NCBI GenBank assembly: GCA_963720265.1
Contig: CAVRET010000001.1
Coordinates: 325,916-389,915 of the forward strand
Length of the DNA: 64,000 nt
Direction of reading: 5' to 3'
Source of the DNA: an uncultured bacterium
GTDB lineage: Bacteria > Patescibacteriota > Saccharimonadia > UBA4664
In this document: positions 2,076-49,770 of the stretch, piece after piece
How positions within the stretch are numbered: the first letter of the stretch is position 1
Layout of the letters: each line of letters opens with the position of its first letter
The notes under the pieces: generated by a model
The model's input: the letters and a program-made list of their open reading frames with translations, nothing else
Told to the model about the DNA's origin: nothing
Database searches by the model: none
Made by a program: the position numbers and the translations under genes

Positions 2076-2091
2076 CGTGGCTCCTGGACTG

Positions 2092-4016: not shown

Positions 4017-4065
4017 GCCTGATCCCCTCTTGTTAAGCATAAGTATAACACTAGCGGCGTGTCAT

Positions 4066-5202: not shown

Positions 5203-5726
5203 GGTTGACCTTCCAGATTTTTAATGGTGGCGTTAAGGTCATCAATGTCGCCGGACTCGGCCGGGTTCGCTTGCGCTATTTTTAAAGCGTTTTTGAAATA
5301 TTGGAGCGCCAAAGTGTTATTGCCTTCGGCGGCCTCCGTTTGGCCGATAGTCTCCGCGTCAAATTCGGTCAGGTGGCCACCGTCGTCAGCGACGGCCTGC
5401 TGGTAGTATTGAACCGCTTTAGCATTATTATGATCATCGACTGCCAGATTGCCTAGCAGTACAAGCGGTTTGTAACGGTCCTGCTTGGGAGGATTTGTAG
5501 CTAGATAATTTTTTAGCGTGCTGGCTTCGTCTGTATAGTTTAGTTCTTGGTCCAGGTAGTCAGCCTGCGACATCACCGAATTATATTGATCTGGCGCGGA
5601 AGTACTCTGGTTTATATAGTTGAATGTCAGCCATCCGCCGGCACCAATCGCTAAAATGACGCACAAGACAACGACAAATGTCCAATTTGGAATAAATCTT
5701 CTTTTGTGATCGTCATCTAGCCGCAT
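5199..5726 (-). CDS. Membrane-anchored TPR-like/helical-repeat protein.
   Basis: Start taken at MRLDDDHKRRFIPNW. Single TM segment FVVVLCVILAIGAGGW. Ala/Leu/Asn/Gln-rich helical repeats (AVQYYQQA, LALQYFKNALKIAQ) resemble TPR-like repeats. Confidence 0.55.
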   Translation of the reverse strand: MRLDDDHKRRFIPNWTFVVVLCVILAIGAGGWLTFNYINQSTSAPDQYNSVMSQADYLDQELNYTDEASTLKNYLATNPPKQDRYKPLVLLGNLAVDDHNNAKAVQYYQQAVADDGGHLTEFDAETIGQTEAAEGNNTLALQYFKNALKIAQANPAESGDIDDLNATIKNLEGQP

Positions 5727-5842
5727 TGGATAGCCTTTGGCGTTACCACACGAAGTCCTGCACTGCACCCTAATAGTATAGTGTTAATGCTTGTCGGCCG
5801 CTGCGTCGCAACTGATTGTATCTTAATCCTAGCCACGGCTCG

Positions 5843-7801: not shown

Positions 7802-8346
7802 AGGTCTACCGGCTCATTAGTTTGGATTGCGTGGATATACTGCTCGTATTGTTGCGGCGTTCCGCCCAGCGGATCAGCTCCTTTGGCAGATGAAATGGTT
7901 ACAAGTTGCTGCAAGAGTGGAATCAGCTGCCGGCGTTGTCCGGCGCGATATCCCGCCGAAACTTCACCTTGGAGCGCAGCTTCCTTGACGTCACTATTAT
8001 CGAGTTTGATCGATGTTTGGTAGTCCTGCATGGCCGCCGAATATTGTTTAAGGTTGACGCGCGCACTGGCCCGGTCAAGGTAAACAACGGCAAGCGTCTC
8101 ATTGTTAATCTTGTAGGTCCCGGCTTTCTGCCCATTAATCAGCTGGGTAGCGACATTCTCGGTCGTTTGGAAGTCCACACCATTTGCGTCACTCGTTAGT
8201 TGAGCTTGCAGTTGCTGCTGCTTAGTTACCCTCTGATGAGCTCGCAAGGTAACAATAAATAAGCCGATGCTGGCAATACAGAGCACAAGCAAACCCGCCA
8301 TCAGCCAGCCGGCCACATGGTGACGCCGATAGTCTACTATCGGCAT
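7798..8346 (-). CDS. Membrane-anchored hypothetical protein (N-in, single TM). First gene of the 8346->4066 operon.
   Basis: 182-aa ORF. Basic N-terminus then TM segment WLMAGLLVLCIASIGLFIV. Stop overlaps the start of 5843..7801 by 4 nt. Confidence 0.55.
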   Translation of the reverse strand: MPIVDYRRHHVAGWLMAGLLVLCIASIGLFIVTLRAHQRVTKQQQLQAQLTSDANGVDFQTTENVATQLINGQKAGTYKINNETLAVVYLDRASARVNLKQYSAAMQDYQTSIKLDNSDVKEAALQGEVSAGYRAGQRRQLIPLLQQLVTISSAKGADPLGGTPQQYEQYIHAIQTNEPVDL

Positions 8347-33113: not shown

Positions 33114-33719
33114 CTAGTTTTTATCCGGGGCCAGGTTATCAACAATTGACCGCATCGCATCCGCACCGATTGGCTTTGGAGCATTGATGAGGATCCAGGT
33201 ACCATCATTGGTAAACAGCGCTCCGGTGGTACGGTCAACAAGATCCGAAATGTAGGCGTGGCCGTACTCGTTATTGTAGACGGCATCTGCCTTTAGTGTG
33301 CTGGTGTCGAAACCTGGCGGGATCGCTTCCTCGGTAAACGCTAGCGTGTTACCGGCTGAATCCTCCATGCCGAATTCGAGTACGTTGTCTTGATAGTCGA
33401 CGGTACCGGCTTCGAGATTGAAATTGGAGGTAAAGTTTGGTTTAAAGTAGTAGAGTGTGAAGCCGGAAGCTTGGTTGACGGCGGATTGCGGAAGGGCGTC
33501 GGGTGGTTGTTTGGGCGACTGGGCAGGGATGAGAGCAAAGGCTGAGCCGACAGCTGCCAGCGCTATCACGATGGATCCGGCAACTATGAGAGATTTTCTC
33601 GAGGGCACACTGATGTGCGGCAAGGTGAAACGGCGAGCTGCATTTCTCCCCCGTTTTAGCATTTTGAGCCTTTGCTCTAGTTCTTCTGGTGCTCGTTCGG
33701 GTATAAAACGCTTGATCAT
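33114..33719 (-). CDS. Small membrane-anchored partner protein convergent with giant gene 1 (N-in, single TM, extracytoplasmic domain).
   Basis: Start set at MIKRFIPERAPEELEQRLKMLKRGR; the longer ORF extension is GC noise. TM segment LIVAGSIVIALAAVGSAFALI. The N-terminal 25 aa are near-identical to those of 49156..49770. Confidence 0.65.
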   Translation of the reverse strand: MIKRFIPERAPEELEQRLKMLKRGRNAARRFTLPHISVPSRKSLIVAGSIVIALAAVGSAFALIPAQSPKQPPDALPQSAVNQASGFTLYYFKPNFTSNFNLEAGTVDYQDNVLEFGMEDSAGNTLAFTEEAIPPGFDTSTLKADAVYNNEYGHAYISDLVDRTTGALFTNDGTWILINAPKPIGADAMRSIVDNLAPDKN

Positions 33720-33818
33720 GCTTACTAGATTACACGAAATGGCGGGCGCGGCCAGTGGCGGAGTTTGGACGGCTTTAAGCGTAAGGAGTATATTCAGAAT
33801 ACTAATGTGAGGTGAGGC

Positions 33819-34547
33819 GTGGTTAATATGGGCAAGTTTGTGCCGCGTAAGAGCGGGTATGTGATCGGTTTGGTCGTGGCGTCGCTTGTGGGTGGGTTGG
33901 TGTCTGCTGCTGCTTTGGCAGCGATTCCGGATGCAAGTGGGTTGATCCATGGATGCTATAACACGAAAAGTGGTGCCATGAAGGTTATTGATGGCTCGAC
34001 GGGATCGTGCACCAATAAGCAGACTGCGCTCAATTGGTACCAGGGCGGCACACCGGTTGTGCAAGATGCTAACGGGCAGGCGCTTGGAACATTGATGATG
34101 TCTGGACTTAATGCCTCTGGCTTTGCTCCTAGCCCTACTGCGGTGTTCAATTCGCAGCTCAGCCGAGTAGTATATATAGGCATAAGCGCAGCAGATAATA
34201 CTAGCCTGCTCGTTGGCTATCCGGACGGTAGTTCTGTGGGCGGTTCTACCTATGACATATACTTTCAAAGTTCTGATTGCACGGGGCAAGCTTATGTCGT
34301 TAGCCAGGGCCCTGCTCTGAAAACCTTGCTTTTGAGCTGGCAAACAAGCTCCGGTACCCAAAGTTACGACGTTGTTGCTGATAATGCGCAACCACAAAGT
34401 TTCACTGCTAATAGTCAGGATTACGCTGGAACGTGTCAGAACGGTGCACAGCTTGGCTTGCCACATACTGTTTCGGGGGCATACCAGGCGACTGAGGTGA
34501 GCTTGCCATTCAGCGTGCCGGTGGCTACTCCCTTACAGTTTAACTAA
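33819..34547 (+). CDS. Secreted hypothetical protein (242 aa).
   Basis: SD-like gaggtgagg upstream. Signal peptide KSGYVIGLVVASLVGGLVSAAALAA. Cys pairs present. No family recognised. Confidence 0.55.
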   Translation: MVNMGKFVPRKSGYVIGLVVASLVGGLVSAAALAAIPDASGLIHGCYNTKSGAMKVIDGSTGSCTNKQTALNWYQGGTPVVQDANGQALGTLMMSGLNASGFAPSPTAVFNSQLSRVVYIGISAADNTSLLVGYPDGSSVGGSTYDIYFQSSDCTGQAYVVSQGPALKTLLLSWQTSSGTQSYDVVADNAQPQSFTANSQDYAGTCQNGAQLGLPHTVSGAYQATEVSLPFSVPVATPLQFN

Positions 34548-34682
34548 GCCTTGTGGCGTTGAGCGCTTGCAGCGACTTAAAGCTCTGTGGCAGTGCCTCG
34601 GCTTGTTTCTTGGTGAAGCTTGAAATGTTGGGTATGTGCATTGGTCACCTGACTCCATAGCGGCATAGGTAAAAACTGCGGC

Positions 34683-34712
34683 AACAGCCCGCCTGAACCG
34701 GCGGGTCTTTGC
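34683..34712 (+). terminator. Intrinsic terminator after 33819..34547.
   Basis: cccgcc-tgaa-ccggcggg hairpin followed by tctttgcttttg. Confidence 0.55.
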
Positions 34713-34833
34713 TTTTGAAAAGTGTGTTGTGTATTTTGCTAGTTGATTTGTGTGAATTTCTAAAAACCAGATATGGGCGTGATTGTGCAACATGACAATT
34801 ATTCACACAGTTTTCGATGTGATGAAAATGCCT

Positions 34834-34861
34834 TTGCGATGGTAAAATTTATTACTATAAT
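34834..34861 (+). promoter_or_regulatory. Strong sigma70-type promoter candidate for giant gene 2.
   Basis: TTGCGA - 16 nt - TATAAT inside an AT-rich 200-bp leader (34700-34910) in an otherwise GC-rich region. Confidence 0.45.
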
Positions 34862-34910
34862 GCTTGCGCTTTGTGAGGCTGGCATGTAAAATTAACAACG
34901 TATGTAGTTT

Positions 34911-37900
34911 GTGAGGAATTGGTCTCTGTACGGCGCTAGAACAAGTCGCCACGTTGTCCAAAACATGCTACGCATCTCCCTGGCTTTCGTTGCTGTAGGG
35001 CTTGTTTCGGTCTCGCTTTTGACAGCGGGCACAGCTCGCGCTACCTCAGGCACGATTAATGATACAATGAATTTCCAAGGGCGACTGCTGACGGCGGCCG
35101 GGGCAGTGGTGCCGGATGGAAATTACAACATTGAATTCAAGATTTACAAGAATGGTGACGGGCAGTCGACTGGGGACACAACCGGGAGCCCGTCCGGGAC
35201 GCTTTTGTGGACCGAGGATTGGCTTAATAACAACTCCGTAACGGCTAATACCATTCCTGTGGTGATCAAGAACGGCTACTTTTCGGTACAGCTGGGCTCG
35301 ATTACGACACTACCGAGTACCGTTACCTTGGACGAGAGCGTGCTGTGGCTGTCGATGACGGTGGCCGGTAGTGCGGGCGCGACCTCGACGAGCTGTACGA
35401 CGTTTTCGGCCTGTAACTCATCAGGTGAGCCGGAAATGCTGCCAATGAAATCGCTGTCGGCGGCGCCGTATGCGATTAACGCAGCTAACGCCAATACGCT
35501 GGGCGGGCTCACGAGCAGCCAGTTTATCCAAAACACCACCTCGCCGCAGTCGAGCGCGAACATCGACATTGCGTCCGGGAATGCGGCGGATCCGGCGGCC
35601 AAGCTTCAGCAGGCCTCGTCGGCCACGGCGCCGGTGCTCACACTGGAACTTGGCGGTTCACCGGGCGTTGGCGGCGATTTGCTCGATTTGCAGGACTCGA
35701 GCACTGCTGTGCTGGATAAGTTTGATTCGAGTGGGAATCTGACGCTTGGTAATAATTCCAATAAAACGATTTCGGTGGCGCCGGCAGCTTCTGGGGGCGG
35801 CAGCAGTCTGACACTCATGGCCGGTAATGGTGCGAGTGGTACAAATGCCGGCGGTAACCTGATACTTGAGGCGGGCGCCTCCACGGGCGGTGCGGCCGGC
35901 GGCAGCATTATTGTGAAGCCGCAGACTGATTCCACGACTGCTTTCCAGGTGGAGAATGCCTCAGGAGCTGCTCTCCTTACCGCTGACGCTGCTAACACTG
36001 CCATTGTTTTAGGCCAAGACACGACACCAACCAACCTAACGGTACGTGGTGGTATCGCATCCGGATCGAACGTCGGTGGCGGTAACATCACCTTCCAAGC
36101 TTCCAATGGTACGGGTGCTGCCGGTTCAGGGTCATTTGTCTTCCAGACCGCAGCTCCGGGCGGAGGTATTACGCTTGATAATACATCGTACACGGGTGGC
36201 AGCGGCAATATCACACTTAGCTTCACGACCGGCAGCGGTAGCAATCGATTGCTCATGGTACAAGCCGAGACCAATGCTAGCCGGTCCTTCAGTGGCATAA
36301 CCTACAACGGTGTGTCGATGACGCAAGTTGCCACTGAGAATTCTCTGACCAATGACGATGGCGTTGGGGCTCATGTGGAACTCTGGTATCTCGTGAATCC
36401 TGCCAGCGGTACCCATAACATCGTTGCTACCATGGTCGGTTCAGGTGCCGGTTCATTGGCTGCCGCCAGTTTTACTAACGTCAATCAGACGACACCGCTC
36501 GGCACAGCCGCGACCGGGAATGGTACGGCTTCGGGGACGCAGCAGAGCAGCCTGTCAGTGGCGACCTCGGCCGGACAATTGGTGATTGATGGGATTGGCA
36601 CTGACGTGCCGAGTTCAGGCGTGGGTGTTGATAGCCCGCCGGCCAGTGGCCAGACGCAATTATGGTATTCGGCCAATTCCCCCAGCCTTTATGGCGCCGC
36701 TGGATCGACGGCGCCGGGTACTGGTTCGACGGTATTCATGAAGTGGAACGTCACGAACGCTGACTGGGCCGATATCGCGGTTCCCATTAACCCGGCCTCG
36801 AATTCAACGGCCGATACTCTGAACAATGACCTGGTGATCGCAAACAGCGGGAACGTCGGGATCGACAACTCTAGCCCCCAGAATACGCTCGATGTGAGCG
36901 GCACGGCGAGGGTGCAGTCAACCACAAACTCGGCGACGGCTTTCCAAGTGCAGGATGCGAGTGGTTCAAGTTTGCTTGATGTCGATACGGCCAATACGGT
37001 GGTAAATGTTGGTACCGCCGGAAGTACCGCCGTCAATGTGGGCGGCACAGCGGGTTCGATTGGGCGAACTTCGATTGGGTCGGTACAGGATGTGGGTGCG
37101 AATAATCTGATCGTCGGTTATCAATATACTGCTCCTTCGACCGGAAGTATTGGCTCAATGTCGGCATATATTGGCGCAAACGTTCAGTCATCACCATACA
37201 ACCAATATCAATTTGCTTTGTATTCAGACAATGGCAGTAACGCGCCAAACGCGTATTTGGCTTCGTCGGCGGTCGGGACGGAGGCCGCGAATACCTGGAA
37301 CACCTTGCCAATCTCGTACAGTGTCACTTCAGGAACCAAATACTGGCTGGTTATGTGGACGAATACTACCAACTCAGCGGACAACGCGCCAAACGGAGAC
37401 ACTAATGTAGCGAGTTCATATGTTGCTTATACCACTGGCCAGACTTTTGGCAGTGGACCCGATAACGGTTTCCCCGCCACATTCCCTACGCCAACGTACG
37501 ACGCCAGCCAATACCCCGATAGCGTATATGCGAGCTACAATAGTACTTCCGGTCCGGCGGTGACCGTGAGCTCGACAGGTACTCTTGGTGTATATGGTTC
37601 GGCCATATTTGAGAGCGGCAGCGATTCAACCACCGCATTCCAGATCCAAAACGCCAGTGCCGCGAGCCTGTTTAATGTGGACACTTCAAACGATGTAGTC
37701 GACGTTGGCGCTACCGGAACCACAGGTCCGTCCACGACCGTCAATATTGGGACATCGTCGAATGCTGCTCAAACGGTAAACCTTGGGTCGACGGACGGCG
37801 CCAGCGCTACTACCATTCAGGGCGGTACTGGCAACGTGTCCATTAACACCGGAGCGGGTTCTGGCAGTACCGGCTCGATAACCGTCGAAAGCGGCAATTC

Positions 37901-40900
37901 ATCGGGCGGTGATTCGGGCAACATTACTGTCGATACCGGCACTAATTCGCCGGGCGGAACAGTGGTTGAGGACGACACGTTTGAGGGCAGCGGGACGGGT
38001 AGTGTTGACGGCTACACGAACAACGATTCGAGCGTAACGCCGACGGCCAGCAACACGACCGCTCACGGCGGCAGTTACAGCTTGAAGCTGACTGAGGCCG
38101 GGAGCTACTGGTACGCATTCAACGCTGGAACTCAGTCTGTCACCCCGGGCCATGTGTACGCGTTCTCGGCGTGGGTCAAGGCCGCTAGCACCAGCGAGAC
38201 AATGTCTGGCTATCTTTACTGGGCTTGTGGCGATGATACGTATCACGCTTGGGGATTCGCGACGGCCGTGTCGTCGGGTTGGACGCAAATGACCGGGACG
38301 CTCACGGCGCCGGCTGTGAATTCCGGCTGCAGCCCAGGCACTGAGACGGTGTCGATGGGTATTACGGACAATACCTTTGGTGGTTCGAGCGGCGAGATTC
38401 AGTACCTGGACGACGTGACCGTGACAGATGAAAGCTTGATTACTGAGCCATCGGTTGATATCGGTACTTCGAATGCGCAGGCTGTTAATATTGGCGGCAA
38501 CAACGCTGGCCAGTACGGCCCCACAACAGTTGAAGGCGGCGGGGGCATTAGTTTACTGGCAGGAACCGGCGCTTCGGTAAACATTGGCACTTCCAACTCG
38601 AATAATGTGACGGTTGGCGACGCCTCAGATATAGACTCGACGACGCTGCAGGGTGGAACGCTGGGAGTGTCCATTAACACGGGAGCGCAGTCTGGCACCA
38701 CCGGCGCGATTACCCTTGAATCGGGCAACTCGAGCGGCGGCGATTCCGGCAACGTCAATATTGACACCGGCACCAACTCGCCCGGCGGCACGCAGGTCCA
38801 GGACGACACGTTTGAGGGAAGTGGGTCAGGTAGTATGGACGGCTACGATAACAATGACGACGGCTTGAGTGCTATTTCGGCAAGTAATACCACTGCCCAC
38901 AGCGGCAGCTATAGCTTGAAGGTGACCGAGAGCTCGGCGTACTGGTTTGCAAATACCAGTGAGGACACAACCGTAACATCGGGGCACGTGTATGCCTTCT
39001 CAGCTTGGGTGAAAGCTGCCAGCACGGGGGAGTCAATAGATGCCAATGTGTACTGGGGCTGCAGTATAGGTGGCATTGTCCAATGGGGGTCAGCCACTTC
39101 CACTTCGTCCGGCTGGACGCAGATCACCGGTACCGCGACGGCGCCGGCTTTGTATCCCGGCTGCATCCCCGGTGACGAATTCGCGCAGCTTACTTTTGGT
39201 GGCATCGCCGGCACCAGCGGGCAGATCGAGTACATAGATGATGCGACGATAACAGATGAGAGCTCAATTACTGAGCCGTCGGTAAATATCGGGACATTGA
39301 ATGCGCAGGCCGTGAACATAGGCGGCAACAACGCTGGCCAGTACGGCCCCACAACAGTTGAAGGCGGCGGGGGCATTAGTTTACTAGCCGGGTCCGGCGC
39401 CCCGATAACCATTGGTACAGGCAACAGCAACAACGTGACAGTCGGCGACGCCTATGATGAAGACGCGACCACGCTGCAAGGCGGCAGCAACGGAGTGAGT
39501 ATCAATACCGGCGACAATTACGATGGTACCGGCTCGATCTCGATCACGACCGGAAATTCTACCAGCGACACGGCTGGCAACATTACCATTGATACCGGAA
39601 CGAGTACGTTCAGTGGGTCGCAGGTGGAGGACGACGACTTTGAGACTGGGACGGATACCTTTGGCTGTTGGTTTGGCTGCGTATCAGCCACCCAATCGGC
39701 GGCGGAGGCCCACGGCGGTTCCGACAGCTTGGCGGTGGCCGAAGATGGCAGCGGTTCGTGGGGTGTGATCGAGGGCTACCCTGGCGTGGCTGCCACCCCG
39801 GGACATGAATACGCCTTTACCGCCTGGGTGCGGGGCACGGCGGCGGAGACGGTTAGCGCCGACGCTTTTTTCCCAGGTTCCGTTGGCCCCGGTGACACCT
39901 ACGACACTGTGACCGATAGCACGAGCGGCTGGACTGAACTTACCGGCGATATGACTGCTCCGGTAGGAGCAACTAACGTATATCTTGGCTTCACCGGTGG
40001 CACCGCCGGCGGTGGGGCGACGGATTACATTGATGACATAACGATCACTGACCTTGGCACAGTTTCGGCGCCAAACATCGCAATTGGTGGGACTAATGCC
40101 CAGCAAGTCACCATCGGCAACGAGAACGAAGGCGGCTACACGAGTATATATGGCGGCGGCGACGGCATTTCGCTTCAAACGTCAAACGGCGGGACCGTTG
40201 CGCTCGGTACGGTAAACCAGTCCAATATTAGCATCGGCGCCGTTGGCAGCAGTACTGAAGATGACGTGGTGCAAATCGACGACACGTCGGGTGGCGGTAC
40301 GAGTATCGTGGACATTGGCGGCACCGCGACTAATGACGGCTCGGATACCGCCAGTACGGTTAACATTCAAGGTGGCCAAACCGGTCTCGTGGTAGCCAAT
40401 GCCGGTGCCACCCTTCAGACCTACACCGATTCCACTACCGCCTTACAGGTGCAAAACTCAAGCGGCGGCGATGTTCTAAACGTCGATACAACCGATGGCC
40501 AAGTCACAGCCGGTAACACCAATACTGCTCGAGCGGAACAGGAATGGGACTCGCACGGTACAAACCAAGCGACACTATCCGACGCGCCTCAGGCTGATGG
40601 CGATTTGCTGATGCTGGCCGTATCGATACCTTCGACCTCAGTTACTGTCTCGTCGGTGTCCGGTGGCGGCGTGAGCAGCTGGAGCAATGCGACTTCGTAC
40701 ACCGACAGCACGGTTGGTTACCGCACCGAGATTTGGGAAGGCACGGTGACCGGCGCCGGCGCCGGTACTATTACGGTCAACTATTCTTCAACGCCGGGGG
40801 GTGGTTGTGAGCTGGCCGCGCAAGAGTTTAGTGCCGGTGTGGGTGCTGGTTGGTCAGTTGTAGCCACTGGACATGCCGTTAATTCTTCGTCGACGACCGT

Positions 40901-43900
40901 CACATTCCCGTCGTTAACTGCTACTCAGACCGGCCAAATGTACTGGGGATACATGGGTGCCGAGCGTGTTGGGGCGGCCGGCAGTTACCCCGGTTTCTCG
41001 TACGTTCCTACCGGCTACCAGAATGTCATTGGCTACGATACAGATTTAGCTGAGGGTACGGTGTACACTCCGACAGCGTCCCAGTCGCCGGCCGGCACTT
41101 CGCTTGGCTCGGCGGTCATAATTTCGGTCACAGACGGTAACGCCCTGACGGTGAATGGGGCGGAGACCATTACCAACACAAACTCCATCAACGCCTTGCA
41201 GGTGCAAAACTCCGCCGGCACCAGCCTGCTGGGCATTGACACGGTTAACAGCCAGGAAACCATCGGCACCTCCGACACCACCACCTTCGGCAACACCTAC
41301 GATGCGGCTACCGCTCCCGAGGGCGGATTTGGCGCCGGCTACTACTGGGATGGCGTAAGCCAACAGGAACTCGTAGCGCAATCGTTTACGACTGCCGGAG
41401 GCGGGCCCTTATCTTCACTTTCGACTTATGTTGGCACCAACGGCATATCGAGTACCAACAAGCTTTACCAGATGGCAGTGTACTCTGACAACGCCGGCCA
41501 GCCGGGAACGTACATTGCGTCAACTGCCGTGGGCAATCTTGGTTCGTCAGCCGGTTGGAAAACCCTGCCCATTACGGCTACCTTGGCGTCGGACACGACC
41601 TATTGGCTCGTCTATTGGACGAACGTGAATGACAACAACAACAACGGTCAGGATATTATCAACACCTTGCGCGGTACATCCAATACCCAAATGTGGGGCA
41701 CTTATGAAAACTGGCAATGCTCGAGTGGTTGCGGGTCTAGTACCAATGGTATGCCAAATACCTATCCCACCAGCGGCAACAATACTACCAATGGCACCAT
41801 CGCCAGCATATATGCCACGTTCGCGAACAACTTGCCGGCATTGCAGATTGATTCCGCTGGCAATAGCATCCAGGATGGCACCGCTTTGTTCCAATCCCAA
41901 ACTGACTCTGACACCGCCTTGGTCGTCAATAACGCCGACGACCAGCCGGTACTGCAGGTGGCCACCACATTCAACGGCGTGGGCGTAGACTGCTCGCCGG
42001 ACGGGAACTACAACTTGACGGTGTGCGCCGGCGGCAATGGTAACGGCGGTGGTTTGTCTGACCTCGGCTATTCGTACCAGCTGCTGAACGTCCAGAACGA
42101 TGGCAACACATATTTGGGCGTCGACAGTATTAACGCCGATGTTCAATCGGGTGATTTGTCAGTAGGCAACTCGGTGAATAATCTCAACGGCCCCGGACTG
42201 TTGGTAAGCGACAACTTCGAGAGTGGGAACTTCAGCCTGTGGAGTGGCGGCTCATCCGGCGGTGAGTCCGTAACTACGTCTGAGGCTCACAGCGGCCGAT
42301 ACTCGGCCGAGACCAACGTGTCGAGCTCCACCGGCTATGCGCGTACCAGTTTCTCTTCTACCTCCACGACGTTTACTCTCAATGCCTGGGTCTGGGCACA
42401 CGTACTGCCAACGTCGGGTGAACTGCCATTGTTTACCTTGTACCAGGCGTCCACCCCAACCAACAAAGTCCAGCTGTACACGGATCAGAATGGATGCCTT
42501 GGCGTTATAAATGGTACGACCGACCTTGGCACAGACTCGTGCGGAACCTTTATTGGCGATGATGATTGGAACAACATCGCCATATCCATAAATCGCACTA
42601 CCGGTGAGATTGCACTCTACGCCGGCCTCGGTTATATGTACTACGGAGCTCAGGGATCAGACTATACCGGCCTCACTATCGGCTCGGGCTGGGACACGCT
42701 GGATATGGGTGTCACAAGCAGTAACACGGGGCAGTACTGGGTTGACGACCTGGCGTTTGGCACCGGCATTACGCCTTCTCTGGCCAACGGCCTCACCGTG
42801 CAAGATTCGCTTCACGCCAGTGGTAGCGCTACGTTCGGCGGCCAGGTTTTGGTGCAGCCGGCGTCGAACTCTGCCACCGCCTTCCAGGTCCAGAATGCCA
42901 GCGGCTACAGCGTATTGAGTGCCGACACTTCCAGCAACTCGGGGCAGGGCCAGGTGGTCTTGGGCAGTTCCAGCAATAATAATGGGACGCTGTTGTTTGA
43001 TAATTCGGCCGGTTCGAGCCAGGTGGGACTAGCTGTAACGTCGTCGAATACCAACACCTACACACTCGACCTGCCGATTGCCGTGCCTAGCACAAACCAG
43101 TGCCTGTTGTCCGGCTCAAGCACGCCGACACAGTTGACGTTCGGGTCGTGCGCTAGCGGGAGCGCGGGCATCAACAACCAAACCACGACCCAATCGAACG
43201 CCAACTTTAACATTCAATCGGCCGGGGCAGCGGACGTGGGCGGTGTTATTCAAGGTGCCAGCTCACAGACGGCCGACTTGCTTGACCTGCGCGATTCGGC
43301 TTCCGGCAACCTGGCAGTGGTGAGCGCGGCCGGCAACGAGGAGAGTTTGGGCTACATCGACAACGCCGGCATTGGCGGGATTGGCCAGTATGGAAACCTA
43401 CTGCTTGACAGCGAACAATTGGACCAAGGCGGCGTGTCGACGCCGCCTTGGTCGACCAACAGTGCGTCGTTGGTAGTAACTGCCAACAATACGACGGCAC
43501 CGGACGGCAATACCACAGCCGAGAAGCTCGCCGGTACTGGAAACGTGAACATTTCGCAATCTGAATCAACCTCCGCTGTCGCAACCACGTACACGTTTAG
43601 CGTGTGGTTGAAGCAGTCGAGTGGGGCGGGCACTAGCGGCTTGTGTATTTACAGCACCGCCGGCACTCCGTCGAGCTGTACGGCTACCGCGGTAACGCCC
43701 AATTCCACCGACTGGCAGCGGTTTAGCGTAACGCAAGCTGTAACCGGCAGCCCAACGGCGATTACGGCGGAGATTTTGCCGGGCAACGGCTCAACGGCCA
43801 CGATTTACGCCTGGGGCGCGCAGCTGGTGGTAGGCACGACTCCGGAAGTGTACACCCGCACTACGGCGGCGGCTGTTGCGGCTTCAAGCGGTGTGGTGAC

Positions 43901-46900
43901 GAACGGCGGTGTACTCATTAATAGCCTTAGCTCGAGCGACACCCCGGTTACCGTTAATAGCAGTACCGGCGTGAGTACGCTCAAGATTGCGGACAGCGGT
44001 GCGACAACGTTTAAATCGTCGACCAATTCCACCACCGCCTTCCAGATACAGAATGCATCAGGTGAGGCTTTGCTTACGGCCGACACTACCAATACGGCAC
44101 TAGTTCTGGGTCAGGACAATACGCCCACCGATCTCACCGTCCGCGGTGGCGCCGCCAGCGGGCCAAATGTGGATGGCGGCGACATTACCTTCCAAGCTTC
44201 TAACGGCACTGGTGCTGCCGGCTCTGGTTCGCTCATCTTCCAAACTGCTCCGCCGGCCGGCGGGGGTGTTACCGAAGACAATTCCGGGACCTCAACCGCC
44301 AGTGCGTGTTCAACAGCCACCCTTAGCTTCACTACCGGATCCGGCTCAAACCGCTTGCTGCTCGTCGGAGCCGAAACCGGCGCCGGCGAGACCTACACTG
44401 CCGTGACCTACAATGGTACCAGCATGACGCAGCTGTCAACGCAGGACAGCGGGACCACGCACATTGAGCTGTGGTATCTGCTAAACCCTGCGTCAGGGGC
44501 GCATAACATTGTTGGCACCCTATCATCGACCCTGCATGGCTGCACGCTCGACGCAGTCTCATATGCCAACGTCAACCAAGTAACGCCGTTTGGTACGGCT
44601 GCCACTAATAGCGGCACAACTACGGGTTTGCAATCCACGAGCAATACCGTCAGCACCACCAGCGCTGCTCAAGTGGTGTTTGATGTTTTGGGGGCAGACG
44701 TCAGTGAGTCGATTGCACCCGGATCGGGCCAGACACAATTAGTAAACTTCCCGGGCACCGGGGGCTTCTACCCGCTGGGGGAGTCCAGCGCTCCGGGCAC
44801 GGGCGCCGCCGTTAACATGAATTGGGCCGTTAACTCGGCCGATTGGGCCGACATTGGCGTACCCATCAACCCGGTTGCCAATTCCACCGCCGACACCCTG
44901 CAAACCGTTCTGGATCTGGCCAACACGGGTAATGTCGGCATCGACAATTCCAACCCTCAGGAAACGCTCGATGTCGCCGGTACCGCCAATTTCCAGAACA
45001 CCACCAACTCCACCACCGCTTTCCAAGTGCAGAATGCGAGTGGCGCCAACCTCTTGACCGCCGATACGACTAACAACCAGATCCTGCTCGGCTCCGATAC
45101 CAACCTGATCCTCTCGGGGACCACCGCCTACATATCCAACCCTCAGGGCTATGGCGACAGTGAGGCTTTCGGAGCTGGTGCGTCGGTCACCTCGAGTAAT
45201 GCCACCGCCGTCGGCTACAATGCTAGCTCCTATTATGATGGGGCAGCAGTCGGGGATAATGCGGCCGCGGGCGGCTATGGCGTTGCACTTGGATACGATG
45301 CTGCCGCCACCTATGTAGGCACAGCCGTCGGCTCGGAATCGGATGCATCTGGGAACTACAGTACGGCGGTCGGTGGTGGAGCAGTCGCAGGGTCAAATTA
45401 CGCGACTGCGTTAGGCTACCTGGCAGCCGCTAACTCGGCTGACAGTATTGCGCTGGGCGCCGGATCTGTTACTAGCAGCGCGAACCAACTGGTTATTGGC
45501 AGTTCCACTGCCAATGGCGCCTATATTCAAGATGCCTACATCGGTTCGGGTATATCGGACATTGCGCCGCAGAGCATTACCGTGCACGCCACCGGCGGCA
45601 GTGGCAGCAACGTGGCCGGTGCCAACCTTAGCCTGGCCGGGGGTATCGGCACCGGTAATGCCAACGGCGGCAATATTAATCTCCAAGTTGCCAAGCCGGG
45701 GGTCAGCGGCTCGAGCGCTAATACGCTTGCAACCGTTGCATCCATCAGCGGCCTCAATGGCTCAGCGTTATTCCAAAATTCCACCGACTCCACCGCGGCT
45801 TTCCAAGTGCAGAACGCGAGTGGCACAAACCTGTTGGGCGTCGATACGTTCGACAGCACCGTGAGTCTAGGAGAAGCCGGTTCGGTCGGCGGTTCCGTGT
45901 ACGGTAAGACGGACATCGGCGGAACGGCGGGCTTCGGCTACTACGATGGCACCAGCGATGTACTTGCCGCCCAGCAGTTTAAGGCCACTGGAGGCGGTAC
46001 CATCTCGTCGCTGTCAACCTACATTGGTATGGTCAAATCTTCGCCGAACAACCAGGGCCAGATGGCAATCTACGCGGATAACGGCAGTAACGCGCCGGGC
46101 AGCTACATTGCATCCACAGGCGTCCACACGCTCACGGCCAACAGCTGGAACACCTGGTCAATAACCGACGGCACCGCCTCGTTGACAACAGGTAGTGAGT
46201 ACTGGCTGGTATATTGGACAAATGACGATGCCATTGATGGGGACAATGCACAGTACCTTGATACAGGCCAAGCCGGCCAGTTAGGGTACCTTTCCGACTA
46301 TGGGTCAGGCGTTAGCTTCGGCACCGGGCCCAATAACGGCATGCCGGCGACGATCCCTGGCGGAACTGTGCTCTCGGGTGCCTACTTCAGCATCTATGCG
46401 ACCTATGGCGGCTCGACTGCCGTACCAGTTACTATTGGTGCTGACGGCAGTGTGACGGCGCTTGGGGCGGCCACGTTCGGAGATTACCTAGATTCCACCA
46501 CCGCCTTCCAGGTGCAGAATGCGGCTGGGGCCAATCTGCTCGGTATCGACACCTCAGGCGACAATGTTAACGTCGGCTCTACGGGATCCACGGCGCTGGC
46601 CGGTACTATCAACGTCGGCACCTCCACCGGTGCGGCCCAGACCGTCAACGTCGGCTCAAACGACGGGGCATCGGCGACCACAATTCAGGGCGGCACCGGC
46701 AACGTCAACGTACTTTCAACTGCGAACATTACTCTGGGGCAGACCAGTACCAATGCCGGCGGAACGCTGGGCTATACCGGTATTGGTTCCAACGGGAACG
46801 GTTGTAGCGGAGGTTGTAATATTACAGCGTCGATGTTTACAACCACTAGTGGCGGTACCGTTGGGACAATGTCGGTGTACGTTAGCTCCCCGGCCTCGGG

Positions 46901-49142
46901 CGATCATTACCAATTTGCCATCTATAGTGACAATGCCGGGTCGCCGAATACCTACATTGCGTCATCCGCTGTGGGTACCCTCACTTCGGTCGCGGGTTGG
47001 TACACGCTGCCCATTACAGCGACACTCGCACCCAGCACCACCTACTGGATAACGTACGCTGATAATAGTGGAAATGACGGCATTAATTACAATAGCGGCC
47101 CGGCCGGTTATTATGTTTGCAATACCACGTTCACTTTCCAGAGCGGCCCGGATAACGGTTTTCCGGCCTCCTACCCAGGGGGTGGCAGCTGTTATCCAAC
47201 CACCCAGGCCAGCATTTATGCAACTTTCAGTGGTGGTACGCAGTCGGCAGTAACGATTAACAGTCTCGGCAACCTCACCGATACCGGTACGGCCAACTTT
47301 GAGGATACAAACGATTCCACCACCGCTTTCCAGGTGCAAAACTCTTCGAACGCGGCGGTGCTGAATGTGGATACGACGAATCAGGCGCTTAGTGTGGAGG
47401 CGTCGAACTCCTCAAGCACCACGCCGACGCTTAATGTAATTCAATCGGGTACCGGCGACGCCACGCTTTCGATACAGGATGCGGGGGCGAATTTCTACCA
47501 AGGCGTAAATGCCAACAATGGCAATGCCTTCACGATTAACTCCCAGTACGCTGCCACGCACAACTCGGATCTGGGTGAAGATTTCGAGTCCAGCGTGCCA
47601 AACGGCGATGACCAAAACTCCAGCTGGGCTGAGGCAACCGAGTTTACCGCCAGTTCTACCGGGACAATGTCGTCAATCAATGTGGCCTTTGATAGTCGAA
47701 TTAACTCCAGCAGTGTATTTTCGGTCGCTGTTTACTCAAATAACGCCGGCGCACCGGGTACGCTGTTGGGTTCATACAGCGGCACCCAGGTGATTCAGGT
47801 TCCGAACCCGGGGACGCTAAACATCAACTGGAATAACATTACACTGAATTCACCGGTGAGCGTCACGAGCGGTACGATCTATTGGCTCGCCTTCCAGGTG
47901 AACGACTCTTCAACGTTTGATGGCATTACTACTGGCGGTTTAAGCGCGTATCGGAGCGGCATCACCCCCGGGACCTGGGCTAACTGGAGCAGTATGGGCA
48001 CGAGCCAAGGCAATAGTACGGTTATAAACGGCGTGTATGCGGTGATTGATTCCAGTACATTGAGCGATACGTACGCAAACGGGCTGTTTTCGCTATCAAC
48101 GGCGGGTGCCGCGACGTTCCAGGGTGTTGCCGACTCGACCTCGGCTCTGACAGTGAAGAATGCGTCGGGCATACAGGTACTTAATGTCGATACGGCCAAC
48201 AGCAGCATTACGGTTAATAGCGCGGTAAACTCACCGGTGGCGTTCCAGGTCCAGAATCAATCAAATAACGACATTTTGACGGTTGACACAACCGATTCAC
48301 GAGTGGAAGTGGGTCCGAGCGGCGGAGGCACAACCGCTACATTATTGGTGCTGGGCATAAAGACCAGTTCCGGCGACCCAGCCGGTGTGACAGGGGCGAT
48401 GTATTATAACTCGAATACGGGTACATTCCGGTGCTACCAGAACAGTGCGTGGGTGAACTGTATTGCCACCGGACTTGGATCGTACCAGGTGCTCACCAGT
48501 ACCTCTGCCAACAGCACCTATACCACACCGGCCAATACCAAAGCGATTATGGTTGAGATGTGGGGTAGCGGTTCGGCGGGTGGTGGTGGCGGAGGCACTA
48601 CGGGTGATGGAGCTGCCGGTGCAGGGGGTGGGGCCGGTGGATACGCCCGCAAGGTTATCGTGGGTCCGGCCTCAACCTATAAGTACACGATCGCGGCCGG
48701 CGGTACTGCAGGTACAGCGGGTAACAACGCCGGTAACGCTCCGGGTTCCGCGAACTGTTTCGGTACCAACTCGACCGCTTGCAGCTCGCCGATTATTAGC
48801 TGCGCCGCCTCCACAGGCGGCGCCGGCATGGCCGCCGGTACAACCAATGCGGGGAGTACCGGCGGAGCCGGAGGCGCATGCACTGGAGGCGATCTCAACA
48901 CTACCGGGGCAGCGGGGCGAAACGGCTCGAGATGGTCTCAGACCGTGGCCCTATCGGGAGGTGGCGGAGGTACCCTCTTTGGTGACGGCGGATCTGGTAT
49001 TGGGCTGCAAGGGACCGGTATTACCGCTGGTAGTACCGTCTACGGCGCGGGCGGCGGCGGGGGCGTAGTGATCAACAGCGCTACTGCTACGGCCGGAGGT
49101 GCTGGGGCACAGGGCGTGATTATCGTTTGGGAATTTAAGTAA
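34911..49142 (+). CDS. Giant secreted modular surface protein, 4743 aa (alternative ATG start at 34965).
   Basis: Uninterrupted 14.2-kb ORF. Signal peptide MLRISLAFVAVGLVSVSLLTAGTARA. N-domain paralogous to giant 1. Three tandem ~276-aa CBM4_9-like modules (DDTFEGSG...AHGGSYSL...GHVYAFSAWVKA...SGWTQMTG...YLDDVTVTDE) carry a 66-bp perfect DNA repeat. Ancient internal duplication of an ~330-aa segment. 14 or more punctuation motifs. Gly-rich C-terminal tail. Confidence 0.85.
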   Translation: MRNWSLYGARTSRHVVQNMLRISLAFVAVGLVSVSLLTAGTARATSGTINDTMNFQGRLLTAAGAVVPDGNYNIEFKIYKNGDGQSTGDTTGSPSGTLLWTEDWLNNNSVTANTIPVVIKNGYFSVQLGSITTLPSTVTLDESVLWLSMTVAGSAGATSTSCTTFSACNSSGEPEMLPMKSLSAAPYAINAANANTLGGLTSSQFIQNTTSPQSSANIDIASGNAADPAAKLQQASSATAPVLTLELGGSPGVGGDLLDLQDSSTAVLDKFDSSGNLTLGNNSNKTISVAPAASGGGSSLTLMAGNGASGTNAGGNLILEAGASTGGAAGGSIIVKPQTDSTTAFQVENASGAALLTADAANTAIVLGQDTTPTNLTVRGGIASGSNVGGGNITFQASNGTGAAGSGSFVFQTAAPGGGITLDNTSYTGGSGNITLSFTTGSGSNRLLMVQAETNASRSFSGITYNGVSMTQVATENSLTNDDGVGAHVELWYLVNPASGTHNIVATMVGSGAGSLAAASFTNVNQTTPLGTAATGNGTASGTQQSSLSVATSAGQLVIDGIGTDVPSSGVGVDSPPASGQTQLWYSANSPSLYGAAGSTAPGTGSTVFMKWNVTNADWADIAVPINPASNSTADTLNNDLVIANSGNVGIDNSSPQNTLDVSGTARVQSTTNSATAFQVQDASGSSLLDVDTANTVVNVGTAGSTAVNVGGTAGSIGRTSIGSVQDVGANNLIVGYQYTAPSTGSIGSMSAYIGANVQSSPYNQYQFALYSDNGSNAPNAYLASSAVGTEAANTWNTLPISYSVTSGTKYWLVMWTNTTNSADNAPNGDTNVASSYVAYTTGQTFGSGPDNGFPATFPTPTYDASQYPDSVYASYNSTSGPAVTVSSTGTLGVYGSAIFESGSDSTTAFQIQNASAASLFNVDTSNDVVDVGATGTTGPSTTVNIGTSSNAAQTVNLGSTDGASATTIQGGTGNVSINTGAGSGSTGSITVESGNSSGGDSGNITVDTGTNSPGGTVVEDDTFEGSGTGSVDGYTNNDSSVTPTASNTTAHGGSYSLKLTEAGSYWYAFNAGTQSVTPGHVYAFSAWVKAASTSETMSGYLYWACGDDTYHAWGFATAVSSGWTQMTGTLTAPAVNSGCSPGTETVSMGITDNTFGGSSGEIQYLDDVTVTDESLITEPSVDIGTSNAQAVNIGGNNAGQYGPTTVEGGGGISLLAGTGASVNIGTSNSNNVTVGDASDIDSTTLQGGTLGVSINTGAQSGTTGAITLESGNSSGGDSGNVNIDTGTNSPGGTQVQDDTFEGSGSGSMDGYDNNDDGLSAISASNTTAHSGSYSLKVTESSAYWFANTSEDTTVTSGHVYAFSAWVKAASTGESIDANVYWGCSIGGIVQWGSATSTSSGWTQITGTATAPALYPGCIPGDEFAQLTFGGIAGTSGQIEYIDDATITDESSITEPSVNIGTLNAQAVNIGGNNAGQYGPTTVEGGGGISLLAGSGAPITIGTGNSNNVTVGDAYDEDATTLQGGSNGVSINTGDNYDGTGSISITTGNSTSDTAGNITIDTGTSTFSGSQVEDDDFETGTDTFGCWFGCVSATQSAAEAHGGSDSLAVAEDGSGSWGVIEGYPGVAATPGHEYAFTAWVRGTAAETVSADAFFPGSVGPGDTYDTVTDSTSGWTELTGDMTAPVGATNVYLGFTGGTAGGGATDYIDDITITDLGTVSAPNIAIGGTNAQQVTIGNENEGGYTSIYGGGDGISLQTSNGGTVALGTVNQSNISIGAVGSSTEDDVVQIDDTSGGGTSIVDIGGTATNDGSDTASTVNIQGGQTGLVVANAGATLQTYTDSTTALQVQNSSGGDVLNVDTTDGQVTAGNTNTARAEQEWDSHGTNQATLSDAPQADGDLLMLAVSIPSTSVTVSSVSGGGVSSWSNATSYTDSTVGYRTEIWEGTVTGAGAGTITVNYSSTPGGGCELAAQEFSAGVGAGWSVVATGHAVNSSSTTVTFPSLTATQTGQMYWGYMGAERVGAAGSYPGFSYVPTGYQNVIGYDTDLAEGTVYTPTASQSPAGTSLGSAVIISVTDGNALTVNGAETITNTNSINALQVQNSAGTSLLGIDTVNSQETIGTSDTTTFGNTYDAATAPEGGFGAGYYWDGVSQQELVAQSFTTAGGGPLSSLSTYVGTNGISSTNKLYQMAVYSDNAGQPGTYIASTAVGNLGSSAGWKTLPITATLASDTTYWLVYWTNVNDNNNNGQDIINTLRGTSNTQMWGTYENWQCSSGCGSSTNGMPNTYPTSGNNTTNGTIASIYATFANNLPALQIDSAGNSIQDGTALFQSQTDSDTALVVNNADDQPVLQVATTFNGVGVDCSPDGNYNLTVCAGGNGNGGGLSDLGYSYQLLNVQNDGNTYLGVDSINADVQSGDLSVGNSVNNLNGPGLLVSDNFESGNFSLWSGGSSGGESVTTSEAHSGRYSAETNVSSSTGYARTSFSSTSTTFTLNAWVWAHVLPTSGELPLFTLYQASTPTNKVQLYTDQNGCLGVINGTTDLGTDSCGTFIGDDDWNNIAISINRTTGEIALYAGLGYMYYGAQGSDYTGLTIGSGWDTLDMGVTSSNTGQYWVDDLAFGTGITPSLANGLTVQDSLHASGSATFGGQVLVQPASNSATAFQVQNASGYSVLSADTSSNSGQGQVVLGSSSNNNGTLLFDNSAGSSQVGLAVTSSNTNTYTLDLPIAVPSTNQCLLSGSSTPTQLTFGSCASGSAGINNQTTTQSNANFNIQSAGAADVGGVIQGASSQTADLLDLRDSASGNLAVVSAAGNEESLGYIDNAGIGGIGQYGNLLLDSEQLDQGGVSTPPWSTNSASLVVTANNTTAPDGNTTAEKLAGTGNVNISQSESTSAVATTYTFSVWLKQSSGAGTSGLCIYSTAGTPSSCTATAVTPNSTDWQRFSVTQAVTGSPTAITAEILPGNGSTATIYAWGAQLVVGTTPEVYTRTTAAAVAASSGVVTNGGVLINSLSSSDTPVTVNSSTGVSTLKIADSGATTFKSSTNSTTAFQIQNASGEALLTADTTNTALVLGQDNTPTDLTVRGGAASGPNVDGGDITFQASNGTGAAGSGSLIFQTAPPAGGGVTEDNSGTSTASACSTATLSFTTGSGSNRLLLVGAETGAGETYTAVTYNGTSMTQLSTQDSGTTHIELWYLLNPASGAHNIVGTLSSTLHGCTLDAVSYANVNQVTPFGTAATNSGTTTGLQSTSNTVSTTSAAQVVFDVLGADVSESIAPGSGQTQLVNFPGTGGFYPLGESSAPGTGAAVNMNWAVNSADWADIGVPINPVANSTADTLQTVLDLANTGNVGIDNSNPQETLDVAGTANFQNTTNSTTAFQVQNASGANLLTADTTNNQILLGSDTNLILSGTTAYISNPQGYGDSEAFGAGASVTSSNATAVGYNASSYYDGAAVGDNAAAGGYGVALGYDAAATYVGTAVGSESDASGNYSTAVGGGAVAGSNYATALGYLAAANSADSIALGAGSVTSSANQLVIGSSTANGAYIQDAYIGSGISDIAPQSITVHATGGSGSNVAGANLSLAGGIGTGNANGGNINLQVAKPGVSGSSANTLATVASISGLNGSALFQNSTDSTAAFQVQNASGTNLLGVDTFDSTVSLGEAGSVGGSVYGKTDIGGTAGFGYYDGTSDVLAAQQFKATGGGTISSLSTYIGMVKSSPNNQGQMAIYADNGSNAPGSYIASTGVHTLTANSWNTWSITDGTASLTTGSEYWLVYWTNDDAIDGDNAQYLDTGQAGQLGYLSDYGSGVSFGTGPNNGMPATIPGGTVLSGAYFSIYATYGGSTAVPVTIGADGSVTALGAATFGDYLDSTTAFQVQNAAGANLLGIDTSGDNVNVGSTGSTALAGTINVGTSTGAAQTVNVGSNDGASATTIQGGTGNVNVLSTANITLGQTSTNAGGTLGYTGIGSNGNGCSGGCNITASMFTTTSGGTVGTMSVYVSSPASGDHYQFAIYSDNAGSPNTYIASSAVGTLTSVAGWYTLPITATLAPSTTYWITYADNSGNDGINYNSGPAGYYVCNTTFTFQSGPDNGFPASYPGGGSCYPTTQASIYATFSGGTQSAVTINSLGNLTDTGTANFEDTNDSTTAFQVQNSSNAAVLNVDTTNQALSVEASNSSSTTPTLNVIQSGTGDATLSIQDAGANFYQGVNANNGNAFTINSQYAATHNSDLGEDFESSVPNGDDQNSSWAEATEFTASSTGTMSSINVAFDSRINSSSVFSVAVYSNNAGAPGTLLGSYSGTQVIQVPNPGTLNINWNNITLNSPVSVTSGTIYWLAFQVNDSSTFDGITTGGLSAYRSGITPGTWANWSSMGTSQGNSTVINGVYAVIDSSTLSDTYANGLFSLSTAGAATFQGVADSTSALTVKNASGIQVLNVDTANSSITVNSAVNSPVAFQVQNQSNNDILTVDTTDSRVEVGPSGGGTTATLLVLGIKTSSGDPAGVTGAMYYNSNTGTFRCYQNSAWVNCIATGLGSYQVLTSTSANSTYTTPANTKAIMVEMWGSGSAGGGGGGTTGDGAAGAGGGAGGYARKVIVGPASTYKYTIAAGGTAGTAGNNAGNAPGSANCFGTNSTACSSPIISCAASTGGAGMAAGTTNAGSTGGAGGACTGGDLNTTGAAGRNGSRWSQTVALSGGGGGTLFGDGGSGIGLQGTGITAGSTVYGAGGGGGVVINSATATAGGAGAQGVIIVWEFK

Positions 49143-49155
49143 GGCAGGCCGCCGT

Positions 49156-49770
49156 CTATTTGCTGAGCGACTGGATGATCGCACTTAAGCTGGGGCTTGA
49201 CGAGCTGGTTGTTGCGCTGAGATTTATCAGCGTGGTGCTCGTTAATACCATTGCCAGGGGAAGATTTGATGGGCCGGTTCCCTGTACGGCTTGACCAACT
49301 GGTGTGGTGACGGTGTGAAAATTGGCGGGTAGCGTCAGCGAACCGCCAGCTGAAATTCCCGCTGGTACTTGGACCTGTTGGGGTTGGGTGAGGGCCGAAA
49401 GATTCGGCGGGTTGGCCGGCTTTGTTTGCTCAGATATCTCGATCGTGGCGTTGGCCGAGCGGAGTGAGAAGAACACCACGCCATTTTGCAATGTCGGCGA
49501 AGCGGTGTCGAAGTGCCAGCCGGCCGGCAGCGGGCGCGGGTAGTAGATCGGGCAGTCGGCGAGCTTTACGATGGCCGACGGCGGGCCAGGCAGGTTGCTT
49601 ATGGCATACCAGCCGATTAGTGCTATGGCGCCGCTGGCAGCTGTAATGCCGGCTGCAAATAATATATGGCGTATTGAGGGCAAGAATCGTTTGCTAGGCC
49701 GGCGTCGAAGGACGCGCAGGCGCTGTTCAAGCTCGTCGGGGCCGCGCTCGGGAATAAAACGTTCAATCAT
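49156..49770 (-). CDS. Small membrane-anchored partner protein convergent with giant gene 2.
   Basis: Start set at MIERFIPERGPDELEQRLRVLRRRP; the longer ORF extension overlaps two tRNAs. TM segment ILFAAGITAASGAIALIGWYAI. Ser/Thr-rich extracytoplasmic domain. Confidence 0.65.
   Translation of the reverse strand: MIERFIPERGPDELEQRLRVLRRRPSKRFLPSIRHILFAAGITAASGAIALIGWYAISNLPGPPSAIVKLADCPIYYPRPLPAGWHFDTASPTLQNGVVFFSLRSANATIEISEQTKPANPPNLSALTQPQQVQVPAGISAGGSLTLPANFHTVTTPVGQAVQGTGPSNLPLAMVLTSTTLINLSATTSSSSPSLSAIIQSLSK

Follow-up and report, generated by a model that had tools for sequence, protein, structure and literature searches.

Two giant genes and their convergent small partners

The stretch of DNA analyzed here, hereafter the window, comprises 64,000 nucleotides of an uncultured bacterium (Patescibacteriota; Saccharimonadia; UBA4664) and corresponds to positions 325,916 to 389,915 of the forward strand of contig CAVRET010000001.1 in GenBank assembly GCA_963720265.1. 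It carries two giant genes, G1 and G2, each met tail-to-tail by a small gene, A and B, respectively. A and B belong to a large family of membrane-anchored proteins whose members, at the loci that could be read, lie tail-to-tail with a large secreted protein and diversify together with the C-terminal domain of that protein. G1 (19724..33103, plus strand) encodes 4459 amino acids (aa) counted from a GTG codon, with the likely start at Met18 (nucleotide 19775); G2 (34911..49142, plus strand) encodes 4743 aa from a GTG, with the likely start at Met19 (nucleotide 34965). Gene A occupies 33114..33719 and gene B 49156..49770, both on the minus strand, and encode 201 and 204 aa. The tail-to-tail arrangement that a preliminary description of this DNA had reported is confirmed: both small open reading frames are present and convergent to the giants, with stop-to-stop gaps of 10 bp for G1/A and 13 bp for G2/B.

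The starts of the small genes required attention. Taken mechanically, the open reading frames of A and B reach far upstream (450 and 330 aa), and the extension of B passes through two tRNA genes. The starts given in the preliminary description are supported by ten family sequences that begin exactly there, with Met-Ile. The deposited protein for A (P0001, 182 aa) begins at Met20 and leaves out the head-coding nucleotides 33663-33719 (minus strand); correction of its start codon reveals a conserved head that the public annotation had hidden. The exact 204-aa sequence of B is absent from the protein collection searched.

Each product carries one hydrophobic helix after the head, as the preliminary description had proposed, with more Lys and Arg residues ahead of the helix than behind it. 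Among 155 family sequences, the mean count of these residues is 4.1 in the 15 positions before the helix versus 1.9 after it, and a clear transmembrane (TM) helix is found in 147 of the 155. The distribution fits an N-in orientation; by this prediction A and B are N-in, C-out single-pass (type II) membrane proteins. In A, which matches the family profile, the head spans residues 1–22, the TM helix 44–62 and the ectodomain 78–198 (33126..33488, minus strand). In B the head is again 1–22, followed by a TM helix at about 31–58, with its hydrophobic part at about 36–54, and an ectodomain at 65–203 (49162..49578, minus strand). The cytoplasmic part amounts to 35–43 residues with one short predicted helix.

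The giants are rich in Thr, Gly, Ser, Ala and Asn, and in each of them one hydrophobic segment, either a signal peptide or an anchor, is found at the N-terminus. G1 contains Kelch repeats and G2 a CBM_4_9 domain. The sortase motif LPxT[GAS] has no match in G1, and in G2 it occurs only internally, as LPITA at residues 2219 and 4033, so that both giants lack a sortase signal at the C-terminus. Both proteins close with a junction motif and a distinct C-terminal domain. In G1, the junction GAMYYNTALDEYRC starts at residue 4201 and leads into a variable domain (32324..33100, plus strand) with homology to the SO2946-like_C domains that partners carry at other loci. In G2, the junction GAMYYNSNTGTFRC starts at residue 4495 and leads into a glycine-rich domain (48393..49139, plus strand). 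The last 300 residues of G2 match Gly_rich_2 (Pfam, E-value 3.6e-9) and the tail-fibre family phrog_863 (E-value 5e-22); judged by these matches, the G2 tip resembles a phage tail-fibre tip.

The extreme C-termini follow a pattern of their own. The partners at loci L002-L006, L012 and L015 were examined together with G1, and the non-glycine-rich (SO2946-like) ends with an intact stop all finish in Arg (7/7; ...LR, ...NR, ...TR or ...FR); the eighth, the partner of P0086 (L013/L014), is without an intact stop in the available contigs. The last codon of G1 (33098-33100) is an Arg codon, and proteins of the G2 type end in Lys. The C-terminal Arg may be a recognition feature for the small partner.

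A conserved head and a homologous ectodomain

The near-identity of the two N-termini, noticed in the preliminary description, holds at both of these starts and recurs in other family members. The first 23 codons of A (33651..33719, minus strand) encode MIKRFIPERAPEELEQRLKMLKR, and those of B (49702..49770, minus strand) encode MIERFIPERGPDELEQRLRVLRR; both conform to MI(K/E)RFIPER(A/G)P(E/D)ELEQRL(K/R)(M/V)L(K/R)R, after which come a basic stretch and the TM helix. The same head is found in P0002, P0004, P0005, P0056, P0059 and P0147, whereas P0003 and P0051 carry a degenerate version of it. On the sequences, the likeness of A and B in this segment is not a chance match. Over the 23 codons, the two genes differ by 13 synonymous and 6 non-synonymous codons (62% nucleotide identity), and other pairs of loci show a similar pattern. 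Since the differences are mostly synonymous, selection acts on the peptide, and the constraint at this level is strong. For the same reason recent gene conversion, or a purely DNA-level or regulatory element, was ruled out as the cause of the likeness. In the model of A, residues 12–22 of the head form an amphipathic helix, with a predicted local confidence (pLDDT) of only about 66–68.

Both cassettes of this genome have the head, and so do all three ectodomain types described below; in the family at large it is a minority feature. It occurs in 10–11 of 155 family sequences (~7% of the best representatives) and lies N-terminal to the membrane anchor, so that the explanation as a generic signal-anchor, which the preliminary description had named as fatal to its proposal, does not apply. 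Cytoplasmic tails are otherwise highly variable: several members carry an ELExRLxxLE helix instead (P0043, P0086, P0108, P0126 and P0153, for example), and five of the 155 start with MDEFRR. A genome scan with the pattern MI[KNE]RFIPE returned 38 matches, about the number expected by chance on our own estimate, and none was confirmed; a second genome scan gave one locus, and a metagenome scan gave only L004, which was already known. When the ten proteins that bear the motif are compared across ectodomain types, identity reaches 62% in the head, against 15% for the linker and TM helix and 22% for the ectodomain. The contrast of a conserved head with a divergent exterior is therefore real, as had been claimed, but the outer domains prove to be homologous rather than unrelated.

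This homology extends over the whole length of the ectodomain, both by profile match and in the structural models. A profile of 141 family members, none of them B-type, matches residues 58–204 of B (96 bits, E-value 9e-32), and the alignment runs end to end with one insertion of ~21 residues. Full-length A and B align by BLASTP with 34% identity over 134 aa (E-value 2e-15), whereas their ectodomains compared pairwise give 24% identity over 58 aa only; this low pairwise identity is why the two had at first looked unrelated. In the AlphaFold models (pLDDT 88.7 for A and 88.9 for B), the elements follow one another in identical order: head helix, TM helix, short helix, beta-strands and C-terminal helix. 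The ectodomain of A is built of a helix, eight strands and the C-terminal helix, and that of B has two extra strands, a beta-hairpin at residues 131–147. The best fold matches are RseB and MucB, and as modeled the ectodomain is probably a distant relative of the LolA/RseB-like binding domains, whose fold is an open antiparallel beta-sheet half-barrel with a packing helix.

The extent of the family became visible only through an exhaustive profile search, as a word-index search for homologues had returned five relatives. The profile search gave 1,496 representatives (clusters at 50% identity) at E-values up to 1e-3 and 543 at E-values up to 1e-10. Most members are 150–215 aa long and align from the TM helix onward, with an ectodomain of ~125 aa. 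Neither A nor B matches Pfam, NCBIfam or PHROGs, and a search of PDB sequences with the family profile returned only TM-like noise. Two Pfam families are touched by relatives. DUF4245 (PF14030) is matched by 25 of 144 relatives, with a best E-value of 1.1e-7, and DUF4367 (PF14285) by 19 of 144, with a best E-value of 2.2e-4. Relatives scanned individually stay below the gathering cut-offs: for DUF4245 they reach 24.5, 14.3 and 13.2 bits against a cut-off of 30.1, and for DUF4367 the protein P0108 reaches 17.7 bits over the full profile (positions 2-109 of 110) against 22.1. A and B themselves match neither family, even at E-values up to 10.

Linkage and co-variation with the giant's C-terminal domain

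A family member lies tail-to-tail with a large secreted protein in 12 of the 12 testable loci, the two of the window included; a lack of such co-occurrence was what the preliminary description had named as refuting. A locus was taken as testable when its downstream DNA or gene table could be read; L009 was excluded, as it ends 166 bp past the stop of the small gene. Across these loci, identity of the small protein to A falls to about 20–35%. As far as the contigs cover these parts, a partner shares the N-terminal module, carries the DPxGxxGAMYYN..FRC junction or ends in a homologous C-terminal domain. Complete partners range from 830 to 4743 aa, so that giant size is not required. Nor is the head: members with other heads (ELEKRL, MDEFRR or none) are linked as well, and the linkage is therefore independent of the head motif. 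The association of the small gene with a large secreted protein is obligate-looking.

The individual arrangements differ in detail. P0004 (L001) is 90% identical to B, and its partner is a CBM_4_9 giant of at least 2917 aa with 13 bp between the stops. P0003 (L003) lies 126 bp from a partner with a G1-like C-terminus (49% identity), and P0002 (L002) is one gene away from another such partner, with a 160-aa secreted protein between them. P0005 (L004) is 11 bp from a partner fragment with the junction motif, and P0020 (L005), which is without the head motif, is 99 bp from a complete 830-aa partner with the same N-terminal module and junction and an SO2946-like_C end (E-value 1.6e-20). P0051, known from a gene table only, is 132 bp from a 1954-aa partner with Gly_rich_2; P0147 (L012) is 264 bp from a homologous C-terminal fragment. 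Proteins with the junction motif also face P0086 (L013/L014; ELEKRL head) at 0 bp or less and P0014 (L015/L016; MDEFRR head) at 36 bp, the latter partner having a G1-type end. P0056 (L006) faces a G-like C-terminus at 20 bp, and a second G-like N-terminus starts divergently upstream. In this last locus the small gene thus has the 3′ end of one giant-like gene on one side and the 5′ end of another on the other side (3-1772 and 2732-4012, both minus strand), an arrangement which indicates that tandem giant arrays interleaved with reversed small genes recur.

The ectodomain and the C-terminal domain of the partner co-vary. Three types of small protein emerge from their mutual bit scores: type A, with A itself, P0002, P0003 and P0020, and with P0014 added from ectodomain distances; type B, with B itself, P0004 and P0051; and type C, with P0005, P0056, P0059 and P0147. 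Glycine-rich (Gly_rich_2) C-termini are found with B-type ectodomains (3/3), C-termini of the form ...NIDEISTWY..R with C-type ectodomains (3/3; P0005, P0056 and P0147), and G1-type C-termini (...DYYQLR..LR) with four of the five A-type ectodomains (A, P0002, P0003 and P0014). A Mantel test that sets the distances between ectodomains against those between the partners' C-terminal domains, over 11 pairs, gives r=0.77 (p=1e-4), and removal of a near-duplicate pair leaves r=0.65 (p=1.5e-3). The small gene and the C-terminal domain of the giant diversify together.

Several features of the surrounding DNA deserve mention. A conserved 16-nucleotide element, TTCGTGTAATCTAGTA (33723..33738, minus strand), ends 4 nucleotides upstream of the ATG of A. 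The element is also present just upstream of the small gene in L003, L004 and L006, and is degenerate in L002 and L009. It is kept before A-type and C-type genes from other samples, with divergence of the sequence farther upstream; B and L001 have TGCTAAAAT in its place. No Shine-Dalgarno sequence is evident upstream of the small gene. From its position and sequence, the element is probably either an operator or a promoter -10 region very close to the start; the latter would yield an mRNA that is leaderless or nearly so. A 9-bp inverted repeat, GTGCGGATG at 33078-33086 and CATCCGCAC at 33158-33166, flanks the G1/A stop-to-stop junction, and the fold energy of this region is not unusual (z = -1.0).

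Divergent from A lies a gene for a secreted 239-aa protein (33828..34547, plus strand). Its homologues (about 160–240 aa) adjoin the small gene in L002 (1959-2441), L003 (1-546) and L013 (1805-2500), and share a conserved N-terminal part, ...AAIPxxxGxIxGCYxxxxGAxKVID....C...Q.ALNW, with no match in Pfam, NCBIfam or PHROG. The protein may be a third member of the cassette. The gene is followed by a strong terminator-like hairpin (34687-34706, plus strand; GCCCGCC...GGCGGGT with a T-rich tail), and a good sigma-70-like promoter (34834-34861, plus strand; TTGCGA-16-TATAAT) stands ahead of G2; with both upstream of it, G2 is probably on its own transcript. On the other side, 82 bp upstream of G1 and on the same strand, a 662-aa protein (17654-19642, plus strand) has phage-like receptor-binding (tailspike-like) features, namely BppL_N, DUF5907, a pectate-lyase-like beta-helix and a weak match to a pre-neck-appendage PHROG; no obvious signal peptide is seen in it. 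A run of minus-strand open reading frames at 354-8346 (596, 491, 378, 652 and 182 aa) is without any Pfam match, which adds to the impression of a poorly characterized lineage.

A possible role and its nearest known counterparts

The analysis establishes the size of the family, its linkage to the large genes and the co-variation, along with a predicted topology and fold class; from these we infer physical binding of the two proteins, a chaperone or tether role, and a role for the head. Because linkage holds in 12 of 12 testable loci and because the ectodomain co-varies with the C-terminal domain, we propose, with a confidence somewhat short of even, that the small protein is a cognate binder of the variable C-terminal domain of the giant encoded tail-to-tail with it. 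The same two observations lend support to one option of the preliminary description, that of an assembly or tethering factor dedicated to its giant. The giant's C-terminal domain would be the last part to emerge from the Sec channel, and a chaperone tethered on the outer face of the membrane could catch it there. Long fibres often fold from a C-terminal nucleus, aided by tip-specific chaperones. That the C-terminus would leave the channel last and that fibres fold from such a nucleus are the reasons we favor a membrane-tethered tip chaperone or dock. The tethered partner might aid folding or register of the tip, or might retain the giant at the cell surface. The short head could be a lineage-specific peptide that touches a shared cytoplasmic factor, or it could oligomerize the partner through its amphipathic helix; the head would then be of one kind across the cassettes of a genome, and each ectodomain would be fitted to its own giant.

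Some of the evidence weighs against a cognate binder. Linkage and a correlation of distances would also be expected from the plain co-inheritance of neighbors, and most of the locus contexts come from short metagenome contigs, probably of related organisms. One pair breaks the correspondence of types, as P0020 has an A-type ectodomain and its partner's end clusters with the partners of type C. In the structural comparison, the Foldseek match of the small-protein fold to RseB is modest (E-value 5e-3, TM-score about 0.33), and a Foldseek search of the viral proteins in BFVD gave no match at an E-value of 1e-3 or below, and none to a chaperone. Finally, known cognate chaperone and immunity genes are usually co-directional, not convergent.

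Co-inheritance leads to the reading in which the neighbors are uncoupled, the small protein being a general envelope protein of the lineage, like the DUF4245 and DUF4367 types, and adjacency an inherited gene order. All the loci sampled may belong to a single bacterial lineage, and co-inheritance alone can yield a positive Mantel correlation. Adjacency is nonetheless kept in 12 of 12 loci despite about 20–35% identity and completely different other neighbors, and two paralogous cassettes in one genome each preserve the pairing; we regard this reading as unlikely. A coupling of another kind would make the giants polymorphic effectors with a conserved junction and a swappable C-terminal domain, which the small protein neutralizes on the producer's own envelope, in the manner of immunity proteins. 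The architecture fits, but the C-terminal domains match SO2946-like_C (E-value 1.6e-20 in L005) and the Gly_rich_2/tail-fibre families rather than toxin families, and the genes are convergent, which makes an immunity-like inhibitor distinctly unlikely. That the genes converge at all could matter in itself, through transcriptional interference or antisense RNA, with the function of the protein unrelated. Neither an intrinsic terminator-like site nor a stable hairpin is found between the paired stops or around them (z-scores are not significant), and several loci have a very short spacing (10, 13, 13, 11, 20 and 36 bp, with 0 or less in L013/L014). The spacing is not conserved, however: it is 99–264 bp in L005, L003, the P0051 contig and L012, and L002 has an intervening gene. 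As the co-variation of ectodomain and C-terminal domain would also be left unexplained, we give regulation by convergent transcription very little weight.

A further alternative starts from the head. The small protein could be a signal transducer, or an anti-sigma-like sensor, in which the ectodomain senses the state of the giant or the host surface and the head relays this to a cytoplasmic regulator. A head so much better conserved between types than the rest of the protein would suit a cytoplasmic partner common to all of them. RseB and MucB, the best fold matches, are components of the sigma-E pathway, and weak DUF4367 matches occur among the relatives; DUF4367 stands at the C-terminus of many anti-sigma factors. 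We compared the small proteins with class I anti-sigma factors (zf-HC2/RsrA-like), which have an N-terminal domain of about 50–90 residues with several helices and an adjacent, usually co-transcribed gene for an extracytoplasmic function sigma factor. A cytoplasmic part of 35–43 residues with one helix is too short for such a domain. No zf-HC2, RskA or other anti-sigma Pfam family is found in A, in B or in the best 25 of 111 family hits (144 members), and no sigma-factor gene (Sigma70) is present in the window open reading frames scanned or in the gene tables of related loci. Moreover, most family members are without the head, and the linkage is kept. These results speak against the anti-sigma anchor suggested in the preliminary description, and a sensor of this kind is very unlikely.

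If the small protein is a cognate binder of the giant's tip, a larger picture can be drawn, although we consider it rather improbable in its full extent. G1/A and G2/B would exemplify a widespread two-gene module of ultra-small, probably episymbiotic bacteria, made of a giant host-binding fibre with an exchangeable tip and a membrane-tethered chaperone or dock specific for that tip. The DNA of the variable tip and of the ectodomain would be bracketed by the conserved GAMYYN..FRC junction on one side and by the head on the other. Tip and partner could then be exchanged as one cassette, like the tail-fibre/chaperone modules of phages, and so set host range.

Small-genome bacteria stand out for their giant surface proteins, which are poorly understood: chains of 4,000–5,000 residues have to fold and stay on a cell that shows no obvious anchor for them. 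A partner gene matched to the giant's tip offers a concrete, testable handle on fibre assembly, retention and specificity. It also gives a first genomic context to an unannotated family of at least 1,496 sequence clusters. In the literature searched, the gene pair, the co-variation and the head motif are not described; DUF4245 is not mentioned, and DUF4367 is.

Comparison with known systems places the small proteins near several of them. The closest in fold are the N-terminal domain of RseB and MucB and LolA-like proteins such as GerS, with which sequence identity is 11–12%. RseB is a soluble protein of two domains that works with the anti-sigma factor RseA, whereas A and B have a TM anchor and a single domain and stand in no sigma or anti-sigma context. 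DUF4245 and DUF4367, uncharacterized LolA-like domains that are membrane-anchored or secreted, share the plan of a short N-terminus, one TM helix and a beta-rich domain of ~120 aa; for neither of the two is a link to giant surface proteins described. In the bitopic proteins of the PilN type, an N-terminal cytoplasmic peptide docks a cytoplasmic partner and is followed by one TM helix and an outer domain. The very short, highly conserved extreme N-terminal peptide ahead of one TM helix in A and B recalls this plan, but the motif differs, there is no match to the PilN Pfam family, and no pilus genes are seen next to it, either in the window or among the genes tabulated for related loci. In overall logic there are counterparts in phage tail fibres, whose tips need cognate chaperones or go with cognate adhesins, as in T4 gp37 with gp38 and gp57A and in the Tfa proteins of lambda and Mu. 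The likeness lies in a long fibre with a variable C-terminal tip and an adjoining small gene that co-varies with the tip, and in the matches of the G2 tip to tail-fibre PHROGs and Gly_rich_2. The small proteins differ from Tfa, gp38 and gp57A in having neither sequence similarity (PHROGs) nor fold similarity to viral proteins; moreover, A and B are membrane-anchored and extracytoplasmic, and their genes are convergent rather than co-directional, which makes the relation one of analogy, not of membership. The fold group is a known but uncharacterized one, and what would be new, by this analogy, is a fibre-tip partner that is tethered to the membrane and encoded tail-to-tail with its fibre.

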